Shown here in pieces: positions 4,310 through 57,903 of a stretch of DNA of 57,903 nucleotides (within the stretch, counting starts at the first letter, position 1; the number at the start of each line of letters is the position of its first letter). The notes beneath the pieces are model-generated. The model was given only the letters and a program-made list of their open reading frames with translations. It was not told where the DNA came from and did no database searches. Origin of the DNA: an uncultured Candidatus Saccharibacteria bacterium (GTDB taxonomy: Bacteria; Patescibacteriota; Doudnabacteria; UBA920); assembly GCA_964594755.1 (NCBI GenBank), contig CAZQMO010000006.1, positions 1 through 57,903 on the forward strand, given 5' to 3'. The position numbers and the translations under genes are program-made.

Positions 4310-6868
4310 ATGTTATTTGGATTTGATATCAGCACGATACTTATAACCACACTACTACTAGCGGTTTTAGTAGTAGTCTTTGTATTGGCGGCAGTTTATT
4401 ATATTCACAGATTCTGGTATTACAAGCACGTGATTTTGCCTCGCACCAAAAATTGGGTGTTCTTGGAAATTCAAATGCCCAAGGATAACAGCGAGGATAA
4501 AGAACGAACCTTGCGCGATGAGGAGAAGAAAAAACTGATTGCTGTTGCAGAGCAGCTTTACACAACCTTGTCTGGTATAAGTCATGAGAATTGGTTTTGG
4601 CAGCCCAAGGATTATATTAGTTTTGAGATTGCCTGTTCGGCAAAAAAGATTTCCTTCTACATCAACTGTCCTAAGCATCTGCAAGATTTAATCGAAAAGC
4701 AAATTCAAGCGCAGTACCCACACGCGTTCATTGAAGAAATCAAAGGTTATAATCCGTTTCCAAAAAGCGGAGAGTTAGCCGCGGCTGAATTGCAACTCAA
4801 TAAATCTTACGTTTACCCTCTGCGCACTTATGAAGACATGGAATCAGATCCGCTCAATGCGTTGACCAACGCCATGTCTAAATTAACTGAACAAGACGGG
4901 GCAGCGATTCAAATCATTCTTTATCCAGCAGGAACACATTGGCAACTTAAGCCGCGACACATGGCTTTGGAAATTCAACAAGGTAAGAACCCTAATGTTG
5001 TGTCTAGTAGTATGGGTCAGAAATTTGCGCGTGAGGTAGGTAGTGGTCTAAAAGATAGTGTGCTCGGGTCTAGGAACCCTTCCGAATCTCAGCTACAACA
5101 ACGGAACGATTTAACCGGTCAGTATAGTGCTATTTCGCTCACTCCAATGCAGCAAGAAATGGTGAAGCGCTTCGAAGAGAAAGCGAGCCGGCCGGGGTTC
5201 TTTACAAATATTCGCATAGTTACCGCATCAGAAGTGCCTGGTCAGGCTCGTCTACATTTACAAAACATTACCTCTTCTTTTTTGGAATATAATATGGCGC
5301 CGTTTAATGGCTTTCGAATTAAATCTCGTAAGAAAAAACGCATAGTCAAGGATTATATCTTTAGAGTTTATCGTCGTTACGGCCGTAAAATGATTCTAAA
5401 CACCGAAGAACTGGCTAGTCTGTGGCATCTGCCAACTCCATACCTAGAAACGCCAAATATCAAATGGCTGTTGTCTAAAAAGGCTCCGGCACCAGTGAAC
5501 TTAGTTGATAACGGGTTGTTGATTGGTAAGAATATTTACCGCGGATTAGAAACTAAAATTCATATAGCCAAAGAAGACCGTCGCCGTCACATGTATATTT
5601 TGGGACGTACAGGTGTTGGTAAAACCGAGGTGATGAAATATATGGCCGTTCAAGATATTGCCAACGGCGAAGGACTTTGCATTATTGATCCTCACGGCGA
5701 TTTCATAGAAGACGTGTTGCCTCATATTCCTAAGCACCGTGCCGAGGATGTAATTTTGTTTGACCCATCTGACACCGAACGGCCACTTGGACTTAACATG
5801 CTGGAAGTCACTCGAGAAGAGCAAAAGGATTTTTCAGTTCAAGAAATGATTGCCATCTTCTACAAATTAGTCACTGACCCAGCTATGCTTGGTCCAATGT
5901 TTGAACATAACATGCGCAACGCCATGTTAACGCTGATGGCAGATAAAGAACAACCAGGAACTATCGTTGAGATTCCCCGAATCTTTACAGACACGGAATT
6001 TCAAAAGTACAAAGTTTCGAAAGTTGCCGACCCAGTGGTCCGTGCCTTTTGGGAAAAAGAAATGGCAAAGACTTCTGATTTTCATAAATCAGAAATGCTT
6101 GGCTACTTGGTATCCAAAGTTGGCAGGTTTGTAGAAAATAGTATGATGCGCAATATTGTTGGACAAGCCAAGAGCTCGTTTAATTTTCGTGACATTATGG
6201 ATAGCCAAAAAATCTTATTAGTAAATTTGGCTAAAGGCAAGATAGGGGAGATGAATGCCAAGCTGCTCGGGTTGATAATTGTTTCCAAGATTCAAATGGC
6301 GGCGTTGTCACGAGCCGATCAGCCCGAAGATCAGCGCCGAGATTTTTACTTGTACGTTGATGAGTTTCAGAATTTTATCACTGATGCCTTTTCTTCTATA
6401 CTCAGTGAAGCTCGTAAGTATAAACTTAATTTGATTATTGCTCACCAGTTCTTAGCACAGCTTCAGCAAGCAGCTGGTGCGCAGGGTGCGGCCAGTCAGG
6501 ATTTGCGCGATGCCGTGTTTGGAAACACAGGTTCCATGATTAGCTTCCGTATCGGCGTGGAAGATTCCGAAGTTATGGCCAAAGAATTTGCTCCAACCTT
6601 TAATGAATTTGATTTACTAAATATTGATCGCTATAACGCGTTCGTTAAGTTGATGGTCAACGGTTCAGCTTCCAAACCATTCAATATGGCCACTTATCCG
6701 TTACCAAAAGCTATGGCCGAACAAAAGCAAATTGCTGATGCTATCCGGCAATTGTCTCGATTAAAGTATGGCAGACCGCAGAATGAGGTTGAAGCTGATA
6801 TTTTAAAAGCCAGCCAAATCGCTGATATGATGGCAGCTGGGCCAGCTAGTACAGAAAAAACTTTATAA
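4310..6868 (+). CDS. VirB4/TraG-VirD4/HerA-like P-loop ATPase with N-terminal TM (CPR type)
   Basis: Walker A GRTGVGKT, IIDPHGD, Walker B LYVDEFQNF, LSEARKYKLNLIIAHQ. Confidence 0.85.
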   Translation: MLFGFDISTILITTLLLAVLVVVFVLAAVYYIHRFWYYKHVILPRTKNWVFLEIQMPKDNSEDKERTLRDEEKKKLIAVAEQLYTTLSGISHENWFWQPKDYISFEIACSAKKISFYINCPKHLQDLIEKQIQAQYPHAFIEEIKGYNPFPKSGELAAAELQLNKSYVYPLRTYEDMESDPLNALTNAMSKLTEQDGAAIQIILYPAGTHWQLKPRHMALEIQQGKNPNVVSSSMGQKFAREVGSGLKDSVLGSRNPSESQLQQRNDLTGQYSAISLTPMQQEMVKRFEEKASRPGFFTNIRIVTASEVPGQARLHLQNITSSFLEYNMAPFNGFRIKSRKKKRIVKDYIFRVYRRYGRKMILNTEELASLWHLPTPYLETPNIKWLLSKKAPAPVNLVDNGLLIGKNIYRGLETKIHIAKEDRRRHMYILGRTGVGKTEVMKYMAVQDIANGEGLCIIDPHGDFIEDVLPHIPKHRAEDVILFDPSDTERPLGLNMLEVTREEQKDFSVQEMIAIFYKLVTDPAMLGPMFEHNMRNAMLTLMADKEQPGTIVEIPRIFTDTEFQKYKVSKVADPVVRAFWEKEMAKTSDFHKSEMLGYLVSKVGRFVENSMMRNIVGQAKSSFNFRDIMDSQKILLVNLAKGKIGEMNAKLLGLIIVSKIQMAALSRADQPEDQRRDFYLYVDEFQNFITDAFSSILSEARKYKLNLIIAHQFLAQLQQAAGAQGAASQDLRDAVFGNTGSMISFRIGVEDSEVMAKEFAPTFNEFDLLNIDRYNAFVKLMVNGSASKPFNMATYPLPKAMAEQKQIADAIRQLSRLKYGRPQNEVEADILKASQIADMMAAGPASTEKTL

Positions 6869-6881
6869 AAACCTCTTAAAT

Positions 6882-6909
6882 AACCGGACTTTTTTTAAGT
6901 CCGGTTTTT
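6882..6909 (+). terminator. Intrinsic terminator
   Basis: AACCGGACTT-TTTTT-AAGTCCGGTT plus T tract. Confidence 0.8.
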
Positions 6910-6917
6910 GATTTGTA

Positions 6918-6946
6918 TTGACAAAACTACTAAAAAGTGCTATAAT
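6918..6946 (+). promoter_or_regulatory. Consensus sigma70 promoter for the 7058-9613 operon
   Basis: TTGACA (6918-6923), 17-bp spacer, TATAAT (6941-6946). Confidence 0.85.
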
Positions 6947-6956
6947 TGTGTTTCAT

Positions 6957-6974
6957 AAATTAAGATTGTTTTTC
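6957..6974 (+). repeat. 18-bp direct repeat, left copy (att-like)
   Basis: AAATTAAGATTGTTTTTC, identical at 9763-9780. Confidence 0.75.
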
Positions 6975-7057
6975 CGAATCTGCTGATCTAGTCATCAGGT
7001 TTGGCAAAGCAATTTGCCGTAGTACTTTGAAAATTTCATAGATTTAGGAGAGAGATT

Positions 7058-7666
7058 ATGTCAGAACTGAAAGGCCTAGAAGGCTTTATACGTAATTATG
7101 ACGGTAATTTTGGTTTGATTCAGCAGACCGGACCGCTATCGAAAGATGGCTCAAAGCCGGTTCGTAAAAAAGATCAAAAACCGTTTGAACAAGTTCTTTA
7201 CCTCGAGGATTGGACTAACTCCGGCCTTACGCCAGAGCAGATCAAAGTCGGACAACGTCTGAAATATGACGCAGTGCCTGATGAAAAATCCGAAGGCGGT
7301 AAACGTAAGAAAGCGATTAACTTTACGTTGAAGGACACCGCAGAACCAGTTTCTGAGGTGAAACAAGAAAAGCCAAAAGAATTTTTGGTGAAAGCAAATG
7401 GTTCAAATTTTTTGGAGCTACGAGTTATCGATGAGAAAGCTACAAATTTTACCATCGCGGCTTTAGCACCAAAGGTTGAACAAGTTGAATTCACCGTGGA
7501 TGGTGCGAAACAACCTTCGCCACCGTCCGGAAGAATTCAGATCAAAGACATCAAGTCATTTGCCGACATTGAAGTTGTGTATCCGATGGATTCACTCGCT
7601 TTAATGATTCGGTGTGATGACACCGGATCTCGTCAGCACTTGACGTTGTGGAATAAACAGAAATAG
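7058..7666 (+). CDS. Hypothetical protein with possible N-terminal cold-shock/OB-fold-like domain
   Basis: SD AGGAG; pattern GFIRNYDGNFGLI...IKVGQRLKYDAV...GKRKKAINF resembles CSD strand spacing; product is inference. Confidence 0.55.
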   Translation: MSELKGLEGFIRNYDGNFGLIQQTGPLSKDGSKPVRKKDQKPFEQVLYLEDWTNSGLTPEQIKVGQRLKYDAVPDEKSEGGKRKKAINFTLKDTAEPVSEVKQEKPKEFLVKANGSNFLELRVIDEKATNFTIAALAPKVEQVEFTVDGAKQPSPPSGRIQIKDIKSFADIEVVYPMDSLALMIRCDDTGSRQHLTLWNKQK

Positions 7667-7676
7667 GAGAACAGTA

Positions 7677-8396
7677 ATGGCAGAAAAAACATGGGACAGC
7701 GTCAAAAATTTGTTAGCGGTTATTAAAGATATGGGTCAGAGCTTTGGTGCTTTGGCAGGATTCTTTTCGCTATTCAATGATGCAAGACCGGTCGTCGAAG
7801 GAGTCCTTCGACAAGTATCACCGGAGTTTGCTTTAAAACTTCGTAGGTCTGAGCAGCAAGGTTCAAAAGGTGCCGCTGATGAAGTGATGTTTCTTAAAAC
7901 ATTACTCATCATGGACGGCGATGACCCGGATCAACAAGATCGCCCTGAACTCGAAGCTATCGTCAGTTATTTGTCGTGGGTTAATACCCGTGACTTGATC
8001 TATGGCGTGGTTTTCATTTGGGTCACTGGTCTGGAAATGGACGATGACGAGCGTCTGAGGTTTTTAAAGCAAATTGCTTTAATGACTGACGACAACGGTA
8101 ATCGTCTTACGGACGAAGCTCATCAGAAACGGTTTGAGTTTACTCAGACCATGGAGATTTTCCGAAAGCCCCTTGGTATGATTGAAGGTTTTCTTCAAAA
8201 ACATCCAGGAATACAGGAAAAAATCGAGCAGTTCCAGCAATGGGACGCAACATTCGCAGCATCGGCCGCGGCCAACCAAACCAATTTTTTGGCAAGGATG
8301 ACCGAAATTCAAGGACGAATCGCTGATCCGACAACCGTACCGAACCTTCCACAGGTAAATCGCGCAGGTTGGAAATATTGGTTTAAATTCTGGTAA
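7677..8396 (+). CDS. Hypothetical alpha-helical protein
   Basis: 239-aa ORF, SD AGGAG, 10 nt after the previous stop. Confidence 0.75.
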   Translation: MAEKTWDSVKNLLAVIKDMGQSFGALAGFFSLFNDARPVVEGVLRQVSPEFALKLRRSEQQGSKGAADEVMFLKTLLIMDGDDPDQQDRPELEAIVSYLSWVNTRDLIYGVVFIWVTGLEMDDDERLRFLKQIALMTDDNGNRLTDEAHQKRFEFTQTMEIFRKPLGMIEGFLQKHPGIQEKIEQFQQWDATFAASAAANQTNFLARMTEIQGRIADPTTVPNLPQVNRAGWKYWFKFW

Positions 8397-8413
8397 GCCA
8401 GGAGGGGATAAAA

Positions 8414-9613
8414 ATGAACGTACTGACAACTTTTGTTTTCGGCCTGGCAAACGTGCTGGGTTTAGGTTTTATTCGTGTGTATGATGCTACCGTGAATTCT
8501 TATCGCGATACTCGCGATCAGTTGAAGCGGTATGCGGTCTTTACGATCGTGATGGTTCTCGTTGGTTCTGTGTTATGCAGGGCTGGTGAGGAAAATAATT
8601 CATGGTGGCTGTTGAATCTTGGCTACGTCCTTCTCACTATCAACTACGCCCTTGGCGGGTTGATCCTAGTCCTCTTGATAAAGAAGGCTATCCCGATGAT
8701 CTTGGTTTCCAAGATTAGTATCGCTACTATCGGTCAGACATTGGCGTTATCCAGTAAAGGACACGCAGCTGCTGGTTCGGTAGAAGAAGCGGATAAGCGA
8801 TTCACTCAGGTTTTCTGGGCAATCATTGTTAGTATGCAAGCATTTTCTTTGCTACTAACATTCATTCCTTTCTACCGAAACTTTCCTGGACTCTTGGTTT
8901 TCATGGGTTCAATCGTTTTGGTTAGCTTTACAGTGGTAGCACTGGAAGCGAAAGGACCTTGGTACGAACGCTACATGATGGGGATTTTATCCCTTGGGGT
9001 GGTCTCGATGGTCGTGGTTGTTATCAACTCGATCTTACCGGGAGAACTTTGGACTCGTGTCTCGGGTTCTTGGACCGCGTTTCGCCAGCTGGAAGAACTT
9101 ACTGCAAGAACTTATTGGGTCGCATTCATTTGGTTTGTGGCTTTGATAATTTTTGCGTACGGTGTCCTTAAGGTGATTTTCCGGAAGGGTGCTGAAGGAT
9201 CTTGGAAAGCTTTAGGAATCGGAACGGTGTTACTACTGTTCATGATTTTCCTGGGACCCAGGACAGAAGCATTAGTCCGGGAATCTGGACCCATCAATGC
9301 ACCGAGCTTTAAGTTCAGTATGCAGACAATCGGCGGACAAACGAATTCCCAGAACTCATCAGTTCAGGGACCGTATCTACCGAATGCAGACAATGATCTG
9401 AAAGTTGGGGAAGCATATAAGTTTCCCGATAACACTGCTGTATTTCTTTATGGGAAGGACGGTCAACTGCACTGGTTTAAAAGCCCTAGTGCTTTCAATA
9501 GACATTACGGTTGTGCCGGGAATCCTACACCGCTGGAGTGTCACCCAATCTATGAAATGCCTACGAGTGTCTCAAAAAGAGACTCTCGATTGAAGGGTGC
9601 TCCAATTCAATAG
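8414..9613 (+). CDS. Hypothetical multi-pass membrane protein with soluble C-terminal domain
   Basis: SD AGGAGG; about 8 hydrophobic segments followed by a Gly/aromatic C-terminal domain. Confidence 0.8.
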   Translation: MNVLTTFVFGLANVLGLGFIRVYDATVNSYRDTRDQLKRYAVFTIVMVLVGSVLCRAGEENNSWWLLNLGYVLLTINYALGGLILVLLIKKAIPMILVSKISIATIGQTLALSSKGHAAAGSVEEADKRFTQVFWAIIVSMQAFSLLLTFIPFYRNFPGLLVFMGSIVLVSFTVVALEAKGPWYERYMMGILSLGVVSMVVVVINSILPGELWTRVSGSWTAFRQLEELTARTYWVAFIWFVALIIFAYGVLKVIFRKGAEGSWKALGIGTVLLLFMIFLGPRTEALVRESGPINAPSFKFSMQTIGGQTNSQNSSVQGPYLPNADNDLKVGEAYKFPDNTAVFLYGKDGQLHWFKSPSAFNRHYGCAGNPTPLECHPIYEMPTSVSKRDSRLKGAPIQ

Positions 9614-9635
9614 GAGGTATTGTTTTGAATTTTTG

Positions 9636-9661
9636 CCAGCTACACATGTAGCTGGTTTTTT
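9636..9661 (+). terminator. Intrinsic terminator of the three-gene cassette
   Basis: CCAGCTAC-ACAT-GTAGCTGG-TTTTTT. Confidence 0.85.
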
Positions 9662-9663
9662 AT

Positions 9664-9689
9664 AAAAAAAAGAGCTGTAAAACAGCTCT
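9664..9689 (-). terminator. Intrinsic terminator for the minus-strand gene ending at 9766
   Basis: On the minus strand AGAGCTG-TTTTA-CAGCTCT followed by a T run. Confidence 0.75.
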
Positions 9690-9762
9690 GATGCAAGTCG
9701 ATGTGATAATGTGATGTATAATTGCATGTGATTATGTTGACTCGCACCTTGTTACGTAAGAA

Positions 9763-9780
9763 AAATTAAGATTGTTTTTC
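9763..9780 (+). repeat. 18-bp direct repeat, right copy (att-like)
   Basis: Identical to 6957-6974; encodes the last codons and stop (EKQS*) of the minus-strand gene. Confidence 0.75.
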
Positions 9781-10782
9781 ATCAGCAGGTGGGCCAGCTT
9801 TTGGTTTGGACCTGGGAGTGACTTTTGTAAACCCATCATCTACGGATGAGTCATCAGTAGTCACATTCGGAGCTGCCGGAGGAGTCACAGATTCAGTGTC
9901 ACTGTTGATAATGCTGACGTGCTCTGTAGACTTAATCCTGAGTTCTGAATTATTGAATCTTCTATAGTTGTACTGAGAGAATTTGTCTCTGATTTTACGT
10001 GCCCATTGAGGTTTCCCCAAGAACAAGTAAGAAATTGACCCAATTACAACTATTCCTAAAAGGATGTATAGAACAGTTTCCATCCACGGATTAATCGTAT
10101 CGTAGTACAACCCAGCGATACTAGTACCTAACCGGCTAAAGAAACCTGGCTCAGAATTTTCAGTTTCATTGGCCGCTGGTGTAGCAGTTGGTTCTGACTG
10201 AGGGCTTGATCCGTTACTCGGTTGCTGGTTGGACAACTTGGCATTTATGAGATTAGCGAGCTTTTGCTGAAACTTGTCATTGGCCGGTAGTTTTGAAATC
10301 ACTCGTTCACTAGTCTTTTCGGCCAAGTCATCTAACTGTGCATCAGTCAAGTTTTCTAGCCTAGAGACAGTGGTCGTTACAGCTTGAGTTCTGGGTGTGT
10401 TTGTTTGGTTCGCTTTTCTCCTTATCGAATTTAGAGATCGGCGAGCACTCAATGATTTTTCCGCAGCCATATAGGCTCGGTACTCTTGCCATTGCCCAGA
10501 GCTTTTATCATCAAGATTGTTGCCTGAGAGTAAAGACTTTTCTAGATACATTATATTGGGACGATTCCGGGCTTTACCTTTTTTCATCCTTCGTTTGCCG
10601 TCTTTATCATAACTACTGAAAGCAAACAATCGGTAATCAATGACCTGTCCGGTTTCGTCGCGCATAACGCCTTTGCGGTCAACGCTGACCGCCATCCGTG
10701 AATCAGACTGCGAGAACGCCAGTCCTGGGCTGATAATTGCTATCAGCATCAGAACCGCGAGCGCAGTTTTAAACTTACGCAT
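9766..10782 (-). CDS. Secreted/membrane-anchored hypothetical protein (signal peptide plus internal TM)
   Basis: Start moved to ATG 10782 (MRKFKTALAVLMLIAIISPGLAFSQ, signal-peptide-like) behind AGGAGG; promoter TTGACA(10857)-17-CAGAAT upstream. Confidence 0.75.
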   Translation of the reverse strand: MRKFKTALAVLMLIAIISPGLAFSQSDSRMAVSVDRKGVMRDETGQVIDYRLFAFSSYDKDGKRRMKKGKARNRPNIMYLEKSLLSGNNLDDKSSGQWQEYRAYMAAEKSLSARRSLNSIRRKANQTNTPRTQAVTTTVSRLENLTDAQLDDLAEKTSERVISKLPANDKFQQKLANLINAKLSNQQPSNGSSPQSEPTATPAANETENSEPGFFSRLGTSIAGLYYDTINPWMETVLYILLGIVVIGSISYLFLGKPQWARKIRDKFSQYNYRRFNNSELRIKSTEHVSIINSDTESVTPPAAPNVTTDDSSVDDGFTKVTPRSKPKAGPPADEKQS

Positions 10783-10963
10783 AGATTTTATCCTCCTATA
10801 TTTTTTGGTCAATTTGGATTGACTTAATATTCTGCCATATATTTTGGCTTCTGTCAAAGTTCGCTTGTGTATCTAGAAACTTGTGTTATAATAATTCAAA
10901 GTATTCTGGATCGAAACCCAAACAAAAGTTCGCAAGAATACAAACAAAAATTCAATTAAAATT

Positions 10964-11593
10964 ATGGATAAACACGCAAATTTGGCATTAATCGTGCAGA
11001 TGATTGAAGCGGCTGAAAAAAACATTCAGTCTGCTAAGCATTTGTTGCGAGAAATGGCGGGCGGAGCACCAGTCAGAGGCAGCAGCAATATTGCCGAAAA
11101 AGTAACTGGTTTGGCGGTTTTAGATGGCGGCAAGATTATTGAAGGCGTGTTTGACGGCCAAAATATGATTGGTCCGGACAACAAGCAGTACCCAGTTCCA
11201 GCCAACTATGCTTCTAAATCTAAACTCGTAGAAGGAGATGTACTTAAACTGACGATTGCTGATGACGGTTCCTTTATCTACAAACAAATTGGTCCGGTTG
11301 ATCGCAAAAAGATGATTGGGATGCTCCTGCAAGATGAAAACGGCGACTACAAAGTTATTGCTGAAGGAAAAACCTTCCGAGTATTGTTGGCATCGCTAAC
11401 TTATTTTAAAGCTCAAGCAGGGGATGAAGTTACTATCGTGGTACCTCAAGAAGGCGATAGCCAATGGGCTGCTGTAGAAAATGTGATTAAGCATGGCGCC
11501 GGTGGTGATTCAGAATTTAGTAGCGCTGCCGGTGGAATGGATCAGGACGTAGAAGCTGAGTCTTTAGCACAGCCAGAAACTGAAGAATTTTAG
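10964..11593 (+). CDS. Conserved hypothetical protein (CPR-type)
   Basis: EGVFDGQNM..YPVPANYASKSKLVEGD motif that I recall from CPR proteins; function unknown. Confidence 0.7.
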   Translation: MDKHANLALIVQMIEAAEKNIQSAKHLLREMAGGAPVRGSSNIAEKVTGLAVLDGGKIIEGVFDGQNMIGPDNKQYPVPANYASKSKLVEGDVLKLTIADDGSFIYKQIGPVDRKKMIGMLLQDENGDYKVIAEGKTFRVLLASLTYFKAQAGDEVTIVVPQEGDSQWAAVENVIKHGAGGDSEFSSAAGGMDQDVEAESLAQPETEEF

Positions 11594-11653
11594 ATAACAA
11601 TTATGATTTTTTTCATCGGGCTTGACTCAAACTATTAACAATTAGCCATCTCA

Positions 11654-12325
11654 ATGCAAAATACCGCACAACTCACACTGAACCAGAAAATTGCCAACTT
11701 GTTGGCAGCGAAGCCAGTTATTTTACAAATCTTGCGCTTTGGGGCAATCGGTACCCTGAACACAGCGCTGGATTTTATTATTTTGAACTATGTGACAGAA
11801 AGTTTCGGGGTAGTGAGCGGGGTTTCTTTGGGCCTACTCAACATTATTAGCTTTAGCGCGGCAGTAATTCAAAGTTATTTGTGGAATCGGGCATGGACCT
11901 TTGCTAGCTTCAACCTTACACCTTTCTCTAATGCATTTCGCTTAGTGGTTGTCGGGGCTTTAGGGTTAACAGCTTTCTTATTAGTCATTTTCGGTGGTTT
12001 GCAAAACGCGAGTACTAATTATTATTTACTCATTTTAATCGTCTTTATCGTAGCTGAAATAATCATTTGGTACGGTTTTGGTTTGAAGTTGTCGAGCAAG
12101 AACGAACAAGGTGTTGGCCAACAATTTACAGTTTTCCTTTTCATCAGTTTAGTAGGATTACTAATAAACAGCGGCATTGTGGCATTAGCCTCCACTGCCT
12201 TAGCACCTTCACTGTCTAGCTTAATTAACACCGCCAGCATTAAAAATGCTGCGAAAATCTTAGCTACCGGCGTATCTCTAGTCTGGAACTTCCTTGGTTA
12301 CAAGCTGATTGTGTTCAAAAAGTAG
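11654..12325 (+). CDS. GtrA-family flippase-like membrane protein (duplicated GtrA repeats)
   Basis: ILRFGAIGTLNTALDF, SYLWNRAWTF, second repeat FLFISLVGLLIN...WNFLGYKLIVF. Confidence 0.85.
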   Translation: MQNTAQLTLNQKIANLLAAKPVILQILRFGAIGTLNTALDFIILNYVTESFGVVSGVSLGLLNIISFSAAVIQSYLWNRAWTFASFNLTPFSNAFRLVVVGALGLTAFLLVIFGGLQNASTNYYLLILIVFIVAEIIIWYGFGLKLSSKNEQGVGQQFTVFLFISLVGLLINSGIVALASTALAPSLSSLINTASIKNAAKILATGVSLVWNFLGYKLIVFKK

Positions 12326-12345
12326 TCCCTTGACTTTTTTCACTT

Positions 12346-12371
12346 AAAACCGCTCAATTAAGAGCGGTTTT
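12346..12371 (+). terminator. Intrinsic terminator
   Basis: AAAACCGCTC-AATTAA-GAGCGGTTTT. Confidence 0.8.
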
Positions 12372-12412
12372 GTTATGGTATAATTAAGTAGAGATGGAAT
12401 TATTTAATATAT

Positions 12413-12518
12413 AGCCGAAGGATCGGGCTTTGCCCGTACTGAGGCAAAATTGGAAAGGGGAGGCAGGCCGCTTGCGGCCGTTGGAAGGGGAAAACCCTTT
12501 CTGGGTTTTCCCCTTCCA
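12413..12518 (+). ncRNA. Candidate structured 5'-leader element of dnaX (homologous to 44415-44565)
   Basis: Three hairpins between an extended -10 (TGG-TATAAT 12376-12384) and ATG 12530; aligns with the mraZ leader with compensatory pairs. Confidence 0.65.
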
Positions 12519-12529
12519 AGGTTATCTTT

Positions 12530-14077
12530 ATGGCAGTTTATTATCAGACTTACAGACCCCAAAATTTTAGTGAAGTTGTTGGTCAGGAATCTTTAGTAAA
12601 AGCACTACTTTCGGCTTCAAATTTGGGCAAAATTGGGCATGCTTATTTATTTTGTGGTAGCCGCGGGGTGGGGAAAACTACCTTAGCCAGAATTCTAGCT
12701 AAGGCCGCTAATTGTCCTAATTCAAAGAAAGGTGATCCTTGCGGAACTTGCGACGTATGCACAGCTATAGCTCGCGGCGCTTTTTTAGATGTTGTAGAGA
12801 TCGATGCCGCTTCTCATACTGGTGTAGACAATATTCGAGAGCTAATTGAGCGCATTAATTTTGGTCCAGCCCAAGGTAAAACCAAAGTCTTCATTATCGA
12901 TGAAGTTCACATGTTGTCTAAGGCTGCCTTTAATGCCTTACTAAAAACTTTAGAAGAACCGCCAGCACATGCATTATTCATTTTAGCCACTACCGATATT
13001 GATAAAGTTCCTGATACAATTGTCTCCCGAACGCAACGGTTTGATTTTCGTAAGATTACCCCTCCTCAAATCCTAGAAACGTTAAAACGAATTGTAAAAA
13101 AAGAAAAATTGAAGCTTGATGACACGGCTTTGCAAATCATTGTTGATAATAGCGAGGGCGGTCTGCGTGATGCGTTGTCTCAGCTATCCATGATTGCTGT
13201 GTTAGACAAAGATTCTAGTGAAGCTGATATTCATTTGTTACTTGGGACAACTTCCCGGGCCACAGTTTTGGAACTGTTATCCTTAGTGGCTTCTGGTAAC
13301 ACCTCAGCGATGCCTGAATTTTTTGCTAAGCAAACGGAACTGAATTTTGACCCCAATAGTTTTACTAGAAAAGTTTTACAGGTTCTGCAAGAATTGCTCG
13401 AAGATGATTTGGCTAAAACTGGCGGTGATCATGAACTGGCAGGAAAGTTTTTATTACCTCAATTATTACATGTAATGCGTCTTTATTTACGTGCTTACAA
13501 AGAAATTGAACGAGCTTTGAGTCCTGAACTTCCTTTGTTACTTGCTAGCATTGAGGCTGCGTTATATATGTCTGGTGGACGAGGTACAGCAGTTGGGAGT
13601 CAACCAGTTATCAATACTAGTACACAAAAATCACCACCACCAATCAATCAAGTGGTGGTTCAGGATTCTCCAGAAGATGTTGAGGTACAGGCTGTTATAC
13701 CTGTTCAAGTTCATACCGTGGTGGATGGTAATACTCCGGTTTTGGATCAAGCCCAAGTTTCTGTTTGGTGGCCAAATTTAGTAAATGAGATGCGTAAAGT
13801 TAATGGTCCTTTGGCTACGTTGTTACGGAATTGCCCAATTGCTTCCGTAGAAGGCAATAATGTCGTGGTCGCAGTAAAGTACCTTTTCCATAAAGAACAG
13901 CTGGAAAGCACCAAAATCCGTTCATTCATCAATGAACACTTAAGTAATCAAGCTGGTGGGCCAGTAATTTTCTCGGCAATTATCGATAAGCGTTTAACAG
14001 TGAGTGAACAAATTAATGACACTGCCACTGCTGTCTCAGATGCGTTAAGGATTTTTGGCGGCGAAGTCATAGAGTAG
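12530..14077 (+). CDS. dnaX: DNA polymerase III subunit gamma/tau
   Basis: YRPQNFSEVVGQ, GSRGVGKTT, Cys4 zinc module, IIDEVHML, SRTQRF. Confidence 0.97.
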   Translation: MAVYYQTYRPQNFSEVVGQESLVKALLSASNLGKIGHAYLFCGSRGVGKTTLARILAKAANCPNSKKGDPCGTCDVCTAIARGAFLDVVEIDAASHTGVDNIRELIERINFGPAQGKTKVFIIDEVHMLSKAAFNALLKTLEEPPAHALFILATTDIDKVPDTIVSRTQRFDFRKITPPQILETLKRIVKKEKLKLDDTALQIIVDNSEGGLRDALSQLSMIAVLDKDSSEADIHLLLGTTSRATVLELLSLVASGNTSAMPEFFAKQTELNFDPNSFTRKVLQVLQELLEDDLAKTGGDHELAGKFLLPQLLHVMRLYLRAYKEIERALSPELPLLLASIEAALYMSGGRGTAVGSQPVINTSTQKSPPPINQVVVQDSPEDVEVQAVIPVQVHTVVDGNTPVLDQAQVSVWWPNLVNEMRKVNGPLATLLRNCPIASVEGNNVVVAVKYLFHKEQLESTKIRSFINEHLSNQAGGPVIFSAIIDKRLTVSEQINDTATAVSDALRIFGGEVIE

Positions 14078-14120: not shown

Positions 14121-15767
14121 ATGTTTGAAGACAAAAATAAAACTATAATGGCCGCGGTAATTGGATTCGCAGTTTTGGCCTTGGTTGTTGTCACTGTTTG
14201 GGAACCTGGGAGTTTATCCTTCCGTGATCCCACTGATTATGAGGAACAAGCTCGTTTGGCTCAAGAAGAACTCGAGCAGTACCGCGAACTGTTGGCTTCT
14301 ATTGAGCCAAATGTAGAAGCTAGTCAGCAGTTCTTGCAGAAAGTGGCAACCGAAGATTTGGTGCGAGAGGAAGTAGAAACAGCTTTGCAAACCAACCAAA
14401 GGATCACAATCCCACAAGTTGCTAATTCAGAAATAAATATCGCCAACCGTGATGATCGTGACTTTGTAGTCAATTACCTGAACGACACTCGTTCTATGAT
14501 GGCGAATTATTCAGAGTCAATTAAGGGAAGCGTTGATGACTTGTTTGCGCCCACTGGTAGTCCATCCGAATTGGCTCGTGCCGAAGCTTTGACAAATGAT
14601 TTTGTCAGTAATTGGAAAACGGTCAGTGTACCACCGTCAGCGGCAGAGCTACATAAGGCTAGTTTGGTTGCCCTGGATCAGTATGGAGATGTATTTACAG
14701 CGGCCAAAGACTACTCGAGTGTCCAGACCGAACAACCATGGTCAACGGTCTATAACAGGTATGCAGTAATTGATAACCGTTTAGCTACAGTTAAAACCGA
14801 ACTCGAAAAACTTAACGCCACCTTTGCGTTTGCGCCCCAAGAAGTAGAGTTACCTGATTTTAGTTTAGTAAAAACTGCCCAAGCGCAATTTGGCTTTGGT
14901 ACTATAGTCACCATAGACTGGCAGATGATTCTTTATGAAGGGATTCGTACTGGTCTAGCTCGTTCCTTCGCGCAATTTAGTATCAACATGATTGACAAGC
15001 TGGTGGGGCATATCGAAAAGAACTTTGCAATTGCCAGCCAACTTTATTATTCCAACGAACTTGGCCGTTTCTATTCGGTTGAGTACATGCAAAAGTTCGT
15101 ATCTGATCCATTAGATAGGGATATTATTTCTAAGTTTATACCAGAATATTTTTGTGTAAATCCGGACGGCCGGCAACTGCGTGATATTTTCGTTGCCAAA
15201 GCCAGGGAAAATGTCGGAACAGATTTAGTTATTAACCCATCTGACCCTGATTTCTTGCAGAAACTGGCTCGTCTTGGAGCTGATGAAAAAAATTATCCAC
15301 TCTGGTGGGAAGGTTATTATCAATCCTTAGCAGCACAAACTAAAGCAGAGGCAGACAGAGCTGCCACTAAAGAAGTGGTCAGTCCAGGTTTAAAGAGTGG
15401 TCGTGATATCGTGAATACTCAGATTCAGAAGACAGTTTCTTCAATTTTAGGGGTCCAGGAATCGGCCATTAGTGGAGCTATGCAACTTGGTACTAATAAC
15501 GCCGAAAACATTGCCAGTCAGTTAGTGGCCAGCATAGTTCAAAATTTGGTGAATAAGTTCATCTTTACCCCGTTATCCGGCGGGCAAACTTCTGGCCCGA
15601 GTGGTATTGGGATTATTGCTGAACGAAATGTCTGTTTGGGTACTGCGCAAATTAAACCATTAATTCCACTTCCTGAAGGTGGCTACCAAAATCCTGACCG
15701 ACCAACAGTTCCGCCACAAACCAGTGATCCAGGTAATTACCCTGGTACAGGTTTACCGCCGCGTTAA
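14121..15767 (+). CDS. Membrane-anchored extracellular hypothetical protein
   Basis: N-terminal TM, long helical body, Pro-rich tail. Confidence 0.75.
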   Translation: MFEDKNKTIMAAVIGFAVLALVVVTVWEPGSLSFRDPTDYEEQARLAQEELEQYRELLASIEPNVEASQQFLQKVATEDLVREEVETALQTNQRITIPQVANSEINIANRDDRDFVVNYLNDTRSMMANYSESIKGSVDDLFAPTGSPSELARAEALTNDFVSNWKTVSVPPSAAELHKASLVALDQYGDVFTAAKDYSSVQTEQPWSTVYNRYAVIDNRLATVKTELEKLNATFAFAPQEVELPDFSLVKTAQAQFGFGTIVTIDWQMILYEGIRTGLARSFAQFSINMIDKLVGHIEKNFAIASQLYYSNELGRFYSVEYMQKFVSDPLDRDIISKFIPEYFCVNPDGRQLRDIFVAKARENVGTDLVINPSDPDFLQKLARLGADEKNYPLWWEGYYQSLAAQTKAEADRAATKEVVSPGLKSGRDIVNTQIQKTVSSILGVQESAISGAMQLGTNNAENIASQLVASIVQNLVNKFIFTPLSGGQTSGPSGIGIIAERNVCLGTAQIKPLIPLPEGGYQNPDRPTVPPQTSDPGNYPGTGLPPR

Positions 15768-15772
15768 ATTTT

Positions 15773-17005
15773 ATGACTGAATTAGAAACCCCTACAACTC
15801 AACCAAAGGAGACTACTCCGAAAGTAGAAACTTCAACTCATCAAGCACCTTATTGGGTGGTTGTGTTAGCCTTGCTGGCTGGTATAGTTGGTGGTATGTA
15901 TGGTGCGCTAGATTTGGCTCAGCGACCGTTTTTTCAAAATCTTTTCGGACAAGGACCACAAGGTGTTGGTCTAAGTCAGACTGTTCAGGTCACGGAGGAA
16001 TCAGCGGTTACTAATGTAGTTAAAGAAGCAGGGCCAGCTGTGGTTTCGATCGTGATTTCAAAAGATGTTAGTCAGCAATTTGATTTTGATGCTTTTCGAT
16101 TCTTTGGGATTCCCGCTCCGCCTTCTTCACAGCCAAACATTCAAGAAGTTGGCGCAGGCAGTGGATTCTTTGTGAGCGATGATGGTTGGATAATGACCAA
16201 TAAGCACGTGGTCTTAGATGAAACCGCTACTTATACTGTAGTCACTAAAGACGGTGAGTCATATGAAGCTCAGGTGATGGCCCGCGATCCAAGTAATGAC
16301 CTTGCTCTGTTAAAGATTGAAATTAGTAATGCGCCGTATCTGCGTTTCGCTGATTCCGACACTTTACAGCTTGGTCAAGGGGTGGTGGCTATTGGGAATT
16401 CTTTGGGACAATATCAAAATACTGTGACATACGGGATTATTTCAGGTGTAGGGAGAAGTATTCGCGCTGGTGGTGGCGGAATTTCGGAGTTGCTTGAAGG
16501 GGTTATTCAAACTGATGCCGCGATAAATCAAGGAAATTCTGGTGGACCGTTGCTTAACTTAGCAGGTTTTGTGGTTGGTATTAATACTGCAGTGGATGTT
16601 AGTGGACAGTCAATCGGCTTTGCTATCCCTGCTAATGATGCCCGTATTGCTCTTGAAAGTTATCAAGCCAACGGTAAAATTTTGAGACCTTATTTAGGGG
16701 TTCGTTATACCATGATTACTCCAGCCTTGGCTAAAACCGATGAGCTGCCGAAGGATTATGGGGCTTTGATTGTTAGAGGTAGCGGTACAACTGATTTTGC
16801 GGTTTTACCTGGTAGTCCTGGCGATCGTGCTGGGCTACGAGAGGGTGATATAATCTTAGAGTTAAACGGACAGCGATTAGATGAAGATAATTCTTTAGCC
16901 AGAGCCCTACGCCGCTTTAAACCCGGGCAAAGAGTAGATGCAAAAATTTATCGTGATGGTGGCGAACAAACAATTACGATTGAGGTAGGAGAACGAACCC
17001 AATGA
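15773..17005 (+). CDS. htrA: HtrA/DegP-family serine protease with PDZ domain
   Basis: GSGFFV, TNKHVV, DLALLK, IQTDAAINQGNSGGPL, C-terminal PDZ (GDRAGLREGDII). Confidence 0.93.
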   Translation: MTELETPTTQPKETTPKVETSTHQAPYWVVVLALLAGIVGGMYGALDLAQRPFFQNLFGQGPQGVGLSQTVQVTEESAVTNVVKEAGPAVVSIVISKDVSQQFDFDAFRFFGIPAPPSSQPNIQEVGAGSGFFVSDDGWIMTNKHVVLDETATYTVVTKDGESYEAQVMARDPSNDLALLKIEISNAPYLRFADSDTLQLGQGVVAIGNSLGQYQNTVTYGIISGVGRSIRAGGGGISELLEGVIQTDAAINQGNSGGPLLNLAGFVVGINTAVDVSGQSIGFAIPANDARIALESYQANGKILRPYLGVRYTMITPALAKTDELPKDYGALIVRGSGTTDFAVLPGSPGDRAGLREGDIILELNGQRLDEDNSLARALRRFKPGQRVDAKIYRDGGEQTITIEVGERTQ

Positions 17006-36690: not shown

Positions 36691-37251
36691 ATGGAGATTA
36701 CGCGTAGAAAGGCTCTCTACTTATTTTTAAGCTCATTGCTAGGCATGATGCTGGTGTTAATGTTTCATCGCTCAGTTTTTGTTATTTACGAAATTTTGGG
36801 TGATTTTTTCCCGCGGCAGCAATGGCTAAACCTTCCGTATTATCATGTGGCGATTTCAGATTTTCTAACAATGTTATTAGCGATGTTTATTGGCGGTTGG
36901 TATGGTATTTGGCTAGGCCTGCATTGGTATAAGATTGTTTACGAAGACAGGCAGGTTCGCTCTTGGTTCCATGGTTTTGTCCCGCACGCTTGGCGGTCTC
37001 ATAAGGTTAAGGACAATCCGAGCCAGGCCGCTGCCACTGGCATGCCTCGCAAGATTGTGGCAACCTCTAACTCAGATGATGTGTTTCAAACTATGCGCAC
37101 AACAGGCATCAAGCCAGTCTGGAGTTTTGATGATTTTAAAAAAGTTGAAACCAACGAGACACCCAAAAAGCGCGTAGTTAAAAAGCGTACTGTCAAAAAG
37201 CGCGTAGTTAAAAAGACAGCTAAGAAAACTTCTGAGCCGGAAGCGGAGTAA
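36691..37251 (+). CDS. Membrane protein with Lys-rich C-terminal repeats
   Basis: Two TM segments; tail KKRVVKKRTVKKRVVKKTAKK with a 21-bp exact repeat (37165, 37195). Confidence 0.75.
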   Translation: MEITRRKALYLFLSSLLGMMLVLMFHRSVFVIYEILGDFFPRQQWLNLPYYHVAISDFLTMLLAMFIGGWYGIWLGLHWYKIVYEDRQVRSWFHGFVPHAWRSHKVKDNPSQAAATGMPRKIVATSNSDDVFQTMRTTGIKPVWSFDDFKKVETNETPKKRVVKKRTVKKRVVKKTAKKTSEPEAE

Positions 37252-52331: not shown

Positions 52332-52406
52332 TGGCTGGGGTACCAGGATTCGAACCTGGGAATGAGCGGACCAAAACCGCTTGCCTTACCACTTGGCTAT
52401 ACCCCA
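52332..52406 (-). tRNA. tRNA-Gln (TTG), CCA encoded
   Basis: TGGGGTA acceptor, AGCGG-TTTTGGT-CCGCT anticodon arm, CCAGG-TTCGAAT-CCTGG T arm, TACCCCA-G-CCA; 75 nt. Confidence 0.97.
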
Positions 52407-52530
52407 TTACGTTAAATTTTTCACTGACCTGGCTATTTGTCCGCTGAGCGGACCTCTATGATGAACGGCTTACCGGCGTAAGCCTATGGCGCTTGCCTAC
52501 CTCCGCCAGTTGGCGGATGGCTATACCCCA
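52407..52530 (-). repeat. tRNA-Gln-derived 124-bp repeat unit A
   Basis: Retains tRNA blocks TGGGGTATAGCCA, GGTA-GGCAAGCG, GTCCGCTCA and CCAGGT in order, separated by three hairpins; lacks the TTCGA loop and acceptor 3' strand. Confidence 0.88.
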
Positions 52531-57711: not shown

Positions 57712-57903
57712 TGGGGTATAGTCATCCGCCAACTGGCGGAGGTAGGCAAGCGCCATAGGCTTACGCCAGTAAGCCGTTAATCTTAGAGGTCCGCTTTGAG
57801 CGGACAAATAGCCAGGTCAGTTAAAAATTGAAATCGATGGGGTATAGCCATCCGCCAACTGGCGGAGGTAGGCAAGCGCCATAGGCTTACGCCAGTAAGC
57901 CGT
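57712..57903 (+). repeat. Tandem tRNA-Gln-derived repeat units B (57712-57837) and C (57838 to window end)
   Basis: 126-bp period; near-identical to the reverse complement of 52407-52530. Confidence 0.9.

Follow-up and report, generated by a model that had tools for sequence, protein, structure and literature searches.

Replacement flexible genomic islands are variable loci for surface structures, such as the O-antigen or the S-layer, which occupy a fixed site between core genes. The stretch of DNA considered here is a contig of 57,903 nucleotides (nt) from an uncultured Candidatus Saccharibacteria bacterium (CAZQMO010000006.1; the window, at its full length), in which the three genes of one operon, designated A, B, and C, lie between two copies of an exact 18-bp direct repeat. 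The interval with these genes is regarded, with slightly more confidence than doubt, as the operon half of a replacement-type island of about 3.9 kb which encodes a surface ligand-binding membrane complex in a Doudnabacteria-like lineage. With the replacement flexible islands it shares the fixed site, the syntenic flanks, versions which can barely be aligned with each other, a distribution incongruent with that of the flanks, predicted membrane or surface products, and the absence of mobility genes. It differs from them in holding a set of three proteins and not a glycan biosynthesis cluster. The phenomenon, a replacement-type flexible island with surface proteins, belongs to a known kind. Its protein families are undescribed, as is the way in which OB protein, B-type protein, and polytopic lectin-display protein are combined. 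Also close are att-flanked elements and integron cassettes. Here too, a promoter in conserved DNA serves variable genes that have none of their own, and a short repeat, exact and direct, flanks the three genes on both sides, but the repeats lie off the junctions, a recombinase is missing, no core is common to the alleles, and both repeat copies stand in orthologous contexts.

How ultra-small episymbiotic bacteria recognise their hosts is little understood, lectin-like pilins being the current lead (PMC11623550). The locus may bear on this question through its fixed site, its swapped ectodomains, which include PA-IL lectins, and an evolution faster than that of its flanks. It is a candidate determinant of host range or phage reception in an uncultivated lineage and a convenient marker for variation at the population level. 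It also teaches caution, as the exact 18-bp repeat around the operon resembled an integration scar and this resemblance failed on comparison with relatives.

The site and its exchangeable content

The left flank of the site is the gene (4310 to 6868, plus strand) of an orphan membrane ATPase of 852 amino acids which resembles the type IV coupling proteins (T4CP) of the VirD4/TraD type. From 542 confirmed relatives of this protein among the species-representative genomes (genome_contigs), 80 loci were retained, and these form the comparison set for the locus. All 80 come from metagenome-assembled genomes of Patescibacteria, labelled Doudnabacteria or, in bulk submissions, Saccharibacteria. The right flank is a core gene, E209 (10964 to 11593, plus strand), which has its own conserved promoter from about 10885 and is found beside the T4CP gene across the clade. 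Wherever both flanks had been captured in the 80 loci, the order secY, ATPase gene, variable segment, E209, GtrA, and dnaX was kept, with a gap between the T4CP gene and E209 ranging from about 100 nt to more than 10 kb. The island of the window is a lineage-specific addition to this conserved adjacency.

The closest flanks were those of the loci L065 and L001, with 93% and 90% identity of the ATPase and 95% and 94% identity of E209, respectively. Alignment of the window to these two loci by blastn was continuous up to position 6947 and resumed at 10879 and 10877, respectively, which places the variable island at 6948 to 10876. The conserved part on the left takes in the terminator of the T4CP gene (6882 to 6906, plus strand; a 10-bp stem with a T-run, conserved in L065 and L001) and a consensus sigma-70 promoter, TTGACA-17-TATAAT, which reads into the island (6918 to 6946, plus strand; 12 of 12 positions matching) and is kept in L065, L001, L002, and L081. 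The conserved part on the right begins at the promoter of E209. The exchangeable unit in between holds the leader, A, B, C, two terminators, and a convergent gene, D, with its promoter. The island would be read from the consensus promoter in the conserved flank by way of a structured leader.

Genes A (202 amino acids, 7058 to 7666), B (239 amino acids, 7677 to 8396), and C (399 amino acids, 8414 to 9613) run on the plus strand, each behind a Shine-Dalgarno sequence of the AGGAG type, and are followed by the terminator of the operon (9635 to 9656, plus strand; 9-bp stem and T-run). Gene D (338 amino acids, 9766 to 10782, minus strand), also within the island, most likely starts with the ATG at 10782 behind AGGAGG and stops at 9766 to 9768; its terminator (9671 to 9689, minus strand) has an 8-bp stem and a T-run. 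In the 3' untranslated region of D, between stop codon and terminator, the heptamer ATGTGAT occurs three times within 35 nt (9700 to 9740). The first-pass annotation, made from the letters of the window, had listed the three open reading frames (ORFs) with their Shine-Dalgarno sequences, the terminator behind them, and the perfect promoter outside the left repeat copy, had noted the absence of an integrase, and had proposed that the genes are read from a flanking promoter. All these statements were borne out: the interval contains no recombinase domain, and the promoter, together with the terminator upstream of it, lies in DNA conserved in L065, L001, L002, and L081, downstream of which the genes differ. 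The same annotation had called the genes orphans, which did not hold. A, B, C, and D have orthologues of 25 to 36% identity, in the same order, downstream of the same T4CP-like gene and without the repeat.

The island of the window is related only to those of L081, L010, L046, L009, and L014. In L046 and L010 the order is one or more coiled-coil proteins, an A-like, a B-like, and a C-like protein, membrane enzymes (PAP2 and large polytopic proteins), and a convergent D-like gene. L065 and L001 carry a second type of island, which contains no homologues of A, B, C, or D and is built on the same plan, with a coiled-coil/transmembrane (TM) protein, an all-beta protein of about 220 amino acids, a B-type protein, and a polytopic protein with a C-terminal beta domain. 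As comparison of A and B with the island proteins of L065 and L001 by phmmer iteration and hhalign yielded nothing significant, the equivalence of the two types is deduced only from gene order and architecture. The recurring plan comprises a beta-rich protein with or without a cold-shock/OB domain, a soluble B-type protein, a polytopic protein with a C-terminal ectodomain, and often a convergent single-pass D. A third type of island is found downstream of the T4CP gene in L004 and L005, with a giant ORF of about 1,500 amino acids and a protein of 630–646 amino acids, without Pfam matches. In the more distant L025, L026, L029, L041, L044, L048, and L069 the place of the island between the T4CP gene and E209 is taken by two or three small genes, among them genes for proteins of about 90 amino acids with His/Gly-rich ends (…GGGHGGGHGGHH) and for a conserved protein of about 147 amino acids.

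The island evolves several times faster than its flanks. Between L065 and L001 the ATPase is 90% and E209 92% identical, as compared to 27–44% for the four island proteins, and between the window and L046 the ATPase is 68% and A to D are 25–35% identical. Over the set, island proteins were 25–45% identical or unrecognisable between genomes with flanks of 70–95% identity. In addition, the type of the island is incongruent with the phylogeny of the flanks. The flanks of the window are nearest to L065 and L001, with which they group along the whole ATPase gene without a switch near its 3' end, and the island is of the L081/L010/L046 type. Together with the mosaic structure of protein C described below, this means that lineages have exchanged whole islands as well as domains, in addition to diverging fast. 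The islands would be swapped by homologous recombination in the conserved flanks and not by a site-specific integrase. Recombinase domains were found neither in A, B, C, D, and the flanking genes nor in ten other ORFs of the window, five of which lie between inverted repeats near a tRNA-Gln gene. The base composition of the island resembles that of the rest of the window, and no match was obtained for the island in the phage and plasmid collections or for the A and C families in viral_contigs, so that a recent arrival from beyond the clade is not indicated. A further candidate, an island serving as the target of a diversity-generating retroelement, was rejected, as no repeat longer than 18 nt involves the island and no reverse transcriptase domain occurs in the island and flanking proteins.

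The 18-bp repeat and the leader of the operon

Two exact copies of the 18-mer AAATTAAGATTGTTTTTC are present in the window, at 6957 to 6974 and at 9763 to 9780, both on the plus strand, and a third site was not found in the window even when two mismatches were allowed. The left copy starts 10 nt inside the island and lies in the 5' leader of the A-B-C operon. The right copy corresponds, on the minus strand, to the end of D, with its four final codons (E K Q S), its stop codon, and 3 nt beyond. To this extent the description from which the analysis started was accurate. It had been built into the claim that the repeat bounds a cassette which arose by site-specific integration with duplication of the 3' end of a gene. 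By this explanation, site-specific recombination would have placed A-B-C in the 3' end of D, leaving the two 18-mers as attL and attR, with an integrase provided in trans. An exact 18-mer without similarity in its surroundings does resemble an att core, the geometry of gene 3' end, element, and second copy is the one expected, the similarity to L065 and L001 breaks off no more than 10 nt before the left copy, and the third codon positions of C have a raised GC content (see below). The boundaries contradict it. The variable segment is 6948 to 10876, so that of the two copies the left one alone is near a boundary; the right one lies inside the segment, with about 1.1 kb between it and the right-hand boundary. 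Nor do the closest relatives have a D gene.

The surroundings of the two copies tell the same story. The left copy is part of a leader of about 100 nt which is homologous in L081 from the promoter to the start codon and is better conserved there than protein A (36% identical). It contains the 5' arm, AGATTGTTTT, of a hairpin with 22 pairs (6963 to 7015, plus strand). The minimum free energy of the hairpin has a z-score of -2.6, none of 200 shuffled sequences folded equally well, and the differences from L081, two of them compensatory and six one-sided, leave every pair intact. Rfam has no family for the leader, and a scan with the leader pattern found no match in genome_contigs or metagenome_contigs. 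At the position of the left copy L081 reads AAGTTGAGATTGTTTTGT, with 14 of 18 positions identical; GGCAAAGCAATTTGCC is identical as well, and the minus-strand stop codon is not kept. A leader which is homologous in L081 and lacks the stop codon there argues that the left copy is not a displaced fragment of D. As for the right copy, GAA AAA CAA TCT TAA aligns with GAT AAA AAA TCT GAC of the D-like gene of L014, the coding part falling on GAT GAT AAA AAA TCT in its tail; this gene continues for eight more codons. Judging from these alignments, each copy is native to its own context and neither is a displaced gene fragment.

A site-specific integration would also predict traces in relatives. The first-pass annotation had suggested looking for an empty site with one copy of the repeat and had named genes in place without the repeat as the finding that would speak against integration. 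No empty site with one repeat copy occurred among the 80 loci, and no closer relative was found; the 18-mer is absent from all 80, including those with about 100 nt between the T4CP gene and E209. Relatives do have the genes at this site and lack the repeat: in L081, A follows directly after the T4CP gene, and L046 and L010 have A-B-C and D without a match between leader and D end. In 17 other islands, the 250 nt that follow the ATPase gene share no direct repeat of more than 13 nt with the remainder of the island, and in L010, L014, and L046 no match of more than 11 nt connects the 3' end of the D-like gene with the interior of the island. With no recombinase in the island either, the integrated cassette is considered very improbable.

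At least one exact direct 18-mer appeared in 7.5% of 200 third-order Markov simulations of the window, so that the repeat by itself is only marginally unusual, and the flanks of the two copies show no similarity beyond chance (p=0.18 and 0.24). It is unlikely by chance that both copies lie at the ends of one transcription unit, for which the joint probability is roughly well below 1% as a post hoc estimate. Two dispersed 16-mers without obvious meaning are also present in the window. A gapped extension of the repeat ('ADSEKQS*' versus 'ADEKQS*', in frame) was tried and discarded, as it was unsupported by the flank statistics and contradicted by L081, which lacks the minus-strand stop codon.

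On balance, the 18-mer is taken to be a match of the T-rich 5' arm of the hairpin with the complement of the A-rich last codons of D and not an att site. The orthologous sequences of L081 and L014 agree with each other at 9 of 18 positions, around an AGATT-TTT core, and in the window the agreement is 18 of 18. With a single genome, three accounts of this identity remain open: coincidence of a T-rich arm with the complement of an A-rich lysine/glutamate tail, a short conversion, and selection for complementarity. The last of these would be biologically meaningful because D is convergent, so that leader RNA and D mRNA are perfectly complementary over 18 nt. The leader RNA might then pair in trans with the stop region of the D mRNA, opening the hairpin or triggering cleavage and thereby coupling expression. 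Both copies are indeed inside predicted transcripts, the leader being predicted to start at about 6953 and the D mRNA to end at the terminator at 9671 to 9689, a conserved hairpin has its 5' arm in the leader copy, and the identity is complete here as compared to one half of the positions between the orthologous sequences. On the other side, no comparable match of leader and D-like 3' end is seen in L010, L014, and L046, the case is a single one with predicted transcripts only, and it is inseparable from the coincidence of a T-rich leader with an A-rich tail. A functional pairing is held to be improbable. A scan of the leader against the whole window with RNAduplex was uninformative, as long sequences give spuriously long duplexes.

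The proteins and the complex they may form

Protein C (C399) has about eight TM segments by hydropathy, in agreement with the number initially estimated, and a Cys-containing C-terminal domain of about 110 amino acids. Its membrane domain is 26–27% identical to proteins of 457 amino acids in L046 and L010. Its last 80 residues, in turn, are 40% identical to the C-terminus of a protein of 432 amino acids in L009, the membrane domain of which belongs to another family. By these alignments C is a mosaic of two allele families, with the membrane domain of one group and the ectodomain of another. The C-terminal domain has two conserved cysteines and matches L009 alone and nothing in the PDB. A basic loop before the last TM segment, the cysteines, and analogy suggest that it faces outward. 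In the C orthologues of L010, L046, L001, L065, L007, and L014 the ectodomain is of the PA-IL/LecA type, with a PDB profile match to PllA/LecA at E=8e-11 and a Pfam PA-IL match at E=2e-4. The known PA-IL/LecA lectins (PF07828; PDB 1l7l and 5odu) are small and soluble, whereas the matching ectodomain of most C orthologues is fused to a polytopic membrane domain; that of C399 itself is different. As regards surface exposure, which counts among the marks of such islands, C and D carry predicted TM segments and the C orthologues carry lectin domains.

Relatives of C are few. An exact-protein look-up showed that C399 is not on record, and scans with the C family were negative in viral_contigs and found none but L010 and L046 in genome_contigs. 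When C399, the C alignment, and the A alignment were used for word-indexed searches of 5.8 billion proteins, a single relative came back beside the query in each case, so that the A and C families are extremely sparse. The alignments are shallow, and structure prediction failed for this reason. An AlphaFold2 model of C399 built from two sequences (pLDDT 40, the per-residue confidence score of the program) shows nine helices followed by a beta region at low confidence, and the model of A, built from three sequences (pLDDT 46), is poor, with a strand order that fits a five-stranded OB barrel.

OB/cold-shock domains bind single-stranded nucleic acid. Protein A (A202) appears to contain a divergent domain of this kind at about residues 1–95, followed by a beta-rich C-terminal domain, and has neither signal peptide nor TM segment. 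A profile of the N-terminal region of about 95 residues, made from A, the homologues P0004 and P0006, and the orthologues of L010 and L046, yielded cold-shock/Y-box proteins in 25 of 25 PDB matches. The best match of the A family profile, covering residues 3–70 of a 70-residue chain, has an E-value of 0.0041, which is weak but specific. The OB/cold-shock assignment guessed at for the first protein thus holds at the profile level (best E=0.004). With the structural model, Foldseek found only non-significant matches to OB folds (E>0.1). In Pfam no match was found for A202, and the L010 orthologue reaches E=2e-5 and 24.6 bits against CSD (PF00313), below the cut-off of 27. As in the cold-shock proteins proper (CspA/CspB, Y-box), the N-terminal region aligns over the whole domain. 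Its differences from these are the score under the Pfam threshold, an insertion of about 20 residues between strands, RNP motifs which are only partly kept, and one or two beta-sandwich domains fused to it, in which a C-terminal motif is conserved (…C-x-D/E-x-G-…-T-x-W). An exhaustive phmmer search of 1.84 billion representatives identified P0004, a homologue of 206 amino acids with 36% identity over the full length, which is encoded directly after an 85% identical ATPase gene on the 3.8-kb contig L081. Scans of genome_contigs, metagenome_contigs, and viral_contigs with the A family found nothing.

Protein B is soluble, with an aromatic/basic C-terminal tail (…GWKYWFKFW), and has no relatives in Pfam or the PDB. 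A B-like protein in the equivalent position of L046 is 27% identical over 82 amino acids (E=0.002). In L065 a B-type and a C-like protein are fused in one polypeptide of 699 amino acids (14798–16897), to which correspond in L001 two adjacent proteins, one of the B-type with 222 amino acids (10532–11200) and one polytopic lectin protein with 528 amino acids (11200–12786). The B-like protein of L032 ends in a TM helix. From the fusion in L065 and the membrane anchor in L032, B is probably bound at the cytoplasmic face of C. Protein D has, by hydropathy, a signal peptide or N-terminal anchor, an extracytoplasmic domain, one TM segment, and a charged tail. Its homologues in L010, L014, and L046 share its strand and lie at the corresponding end of the island, and L065 and L001 have none.

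These features can be put together as follows. C would be a surface-exposed protein for ligand binding, in adhesion or sensing, with an ectodomain exchanged by recombination, which is a PA-IL/LecA domain in most relatives and a different, Cys-containing one here. B would sit on its cytoplasmic face, A may serve as a cytoplasmic adaptor or as a nucleic acid binding partner, and D may be an accessory protein of the envelope. The variation might reflect diversifying selection at contacts with host cells, via their glycans, or with phages. Lectin-mediated binding to hosts has already been proposed for cultivated episymbiotic Saccharibacteria (PMC11623550), which makes surface binding plausible but does not prove it.

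Several points weigh against this picture. The outward placement of the C-terminal domain is derived solely from charge distribution, cysteines, and analogy, and the ectodomain of the window's own C, for which no relatives are known, is not a lectin. The AlphaFold2 models of A (pLDDT 46) and C (pLDDT 40) are unreliable. The picture does not explain what a cold-shock/OB protein does in a surface complex. The GC content at third codon positions of C399 is the highest of the genes measured (0.47 as compared to 0.37±0.04 in 31 other genes), which fits a recent import; the gene or a part of it may have arrived recently from another lineage. Finally, an identity of 18 out of 18 positions is hard to reach by drift, so that this lineage may have seen a conversion or been under selection for complementarity.

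The layout of the same genes had initially been called compatible with an undescribed system for defence or stress. On this view the operon, alone or together with the HerA/T4CP-type ATPase, would be a new system of the anti-phage or abortive-infection kind, its OB protein sensing nucleic acid and its membrane protein acting as effector. Hypervariable content between core genes is typical of defence hot spots, an OB domain together with a membrane protein is a suitable layout, and the core of the ATPase matches the PADLOC model mad8 with E=1.6e-15. The proteins themselves gave no such signal: A, B, C, and D had nothing significant in PADLOC, PHROGs, and NCBIfam, the only match being a 30-residue stretch of B at E=0.04 (PADLOC). 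One architecture recurs in all islands of the type, where unrelated systems replacing each other would be expected, and the ATPase is a core gene which is retained where the island is absent. That the C orthologues have lectin ectodomains suggests binding at the surface and does not fit the logic of an intracellular sensor and effector. A defence function is therefore thought to be quite unlikely, and a surface complex for ligand binding remains the preferred interpretation.

The adjacent ATPase gene and other repeats of the window

In a survey of Patescibacteria 5,713 homologues of the VirD4 type were counted, 148 of them near virB4, and an exaptation was suggested (Quinonero-Coronel et al. 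2025, PMC12102498). The ATPase gene upstream of the island is one of these orphan VirD4-like copies. Like them it is far from a recognisable virB4 cluster and adjoins housekeeping genes; a variable island downstream is not described in that paper. The genes for the ribosomal proteins S8, L6, S5, and L15 and secY lie upstream of it, and a GtrA-family gene and dnaX downstream of E209. The protein matches TrwB_AAD_bind, DUF87, T4SS-DNA_transf, and TraG-D_C of Pfam, each above cut-off. No type IV secretion components were detected: C399 has no VirB6/TrbL signal in Pfam and NCBIfam, and the neighbours, with part of the ORFs of the window scanned, are ribosomal, SecY, GtrA, and dnaX genes. The T4CP-like gene is a conserved core gene beside secY, outside any type IV secretion cluster. 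Besides the match to mad8, its ATPase core has weak matches to the HerA models of PADLOC, and a precomputed annotation of the L081 orthologue gives an N-terminal DUF8128.

The neighbourhood invites the explanation that the island encodes partners or substrates of this coupling ATPase, either as a minimal translocation device of ATPase, A, and C or as exchangeable sets of effector and immunity proteins. Variable modules downstream of essC in type VII secretion loci are an analogue of the latter option. The island always lies directly downstream of the T4CP-like gene, OB/cold-shock domains have single-stranded nucleic acid as their ligand, and the conserved aromatic/basic tail of B and its relatives is a possible recognition signal. 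Moreover, the T4CP homologues of Patescibacteria are mostly far from virB4 and suspected of exaptation (PMC12102498). Against this, the ATPase gene is found beside E209 in many island-free relatives, so that A-B-C is not needed for it, its 3' end does not co-vary with the type of the island, the island has its own promoter after a terminator, and the VirB6/TrbL signal is missing from C399. Such a partnership is judged unlikely. Both thoughts can be merged into an undescribed host-contact machine of episymbiotic Patescibacteria, in which A-B-C, with or without D, docks on host glycans via the exchangeable ectodomain of C, B and A couple it to the orphan ATPase moving nucleic acid or protein, an exchange of the island resets host specificity, and the 18-nt complementarity of leader and D possibly acts as an mRNA-mRNA switch. 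This merged scheme is given little credence, and the surface complex encoded by a replacement-type island is retained as the reading of the locus.

Other repeats of the window lie far from the island. A family of 76–84-nt repeats, 95% identical to each other, is located at 52447–52530 (minus orientation), 57712–57795, and 57831–57903. One copy is beside tRNA-Gln(ttg) (52332–52406), and two, in tandem with 126-nt spacing, follow in inverted orientation at the very end of the window, at a distance of 5.2 kb. Each copy opens with a tRNA-like 5' part (GGGGTATAGCCA). Rfam has no family for them, and no recombinase was found among the five ORFs scanned between the inverted copies; the genes bracketed by the repeats encode a PD-(D/E)XK nuclease, a repeat-containing protein of 416 amino acids, and MnmA. 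A perfect 22-nt tandem duplication, CAAAAAGCGCGTAGTTAAAAAG, is present at 37164–37185 and 37194–37215, 30 nt apart, inside the ORF at 36691–37251.

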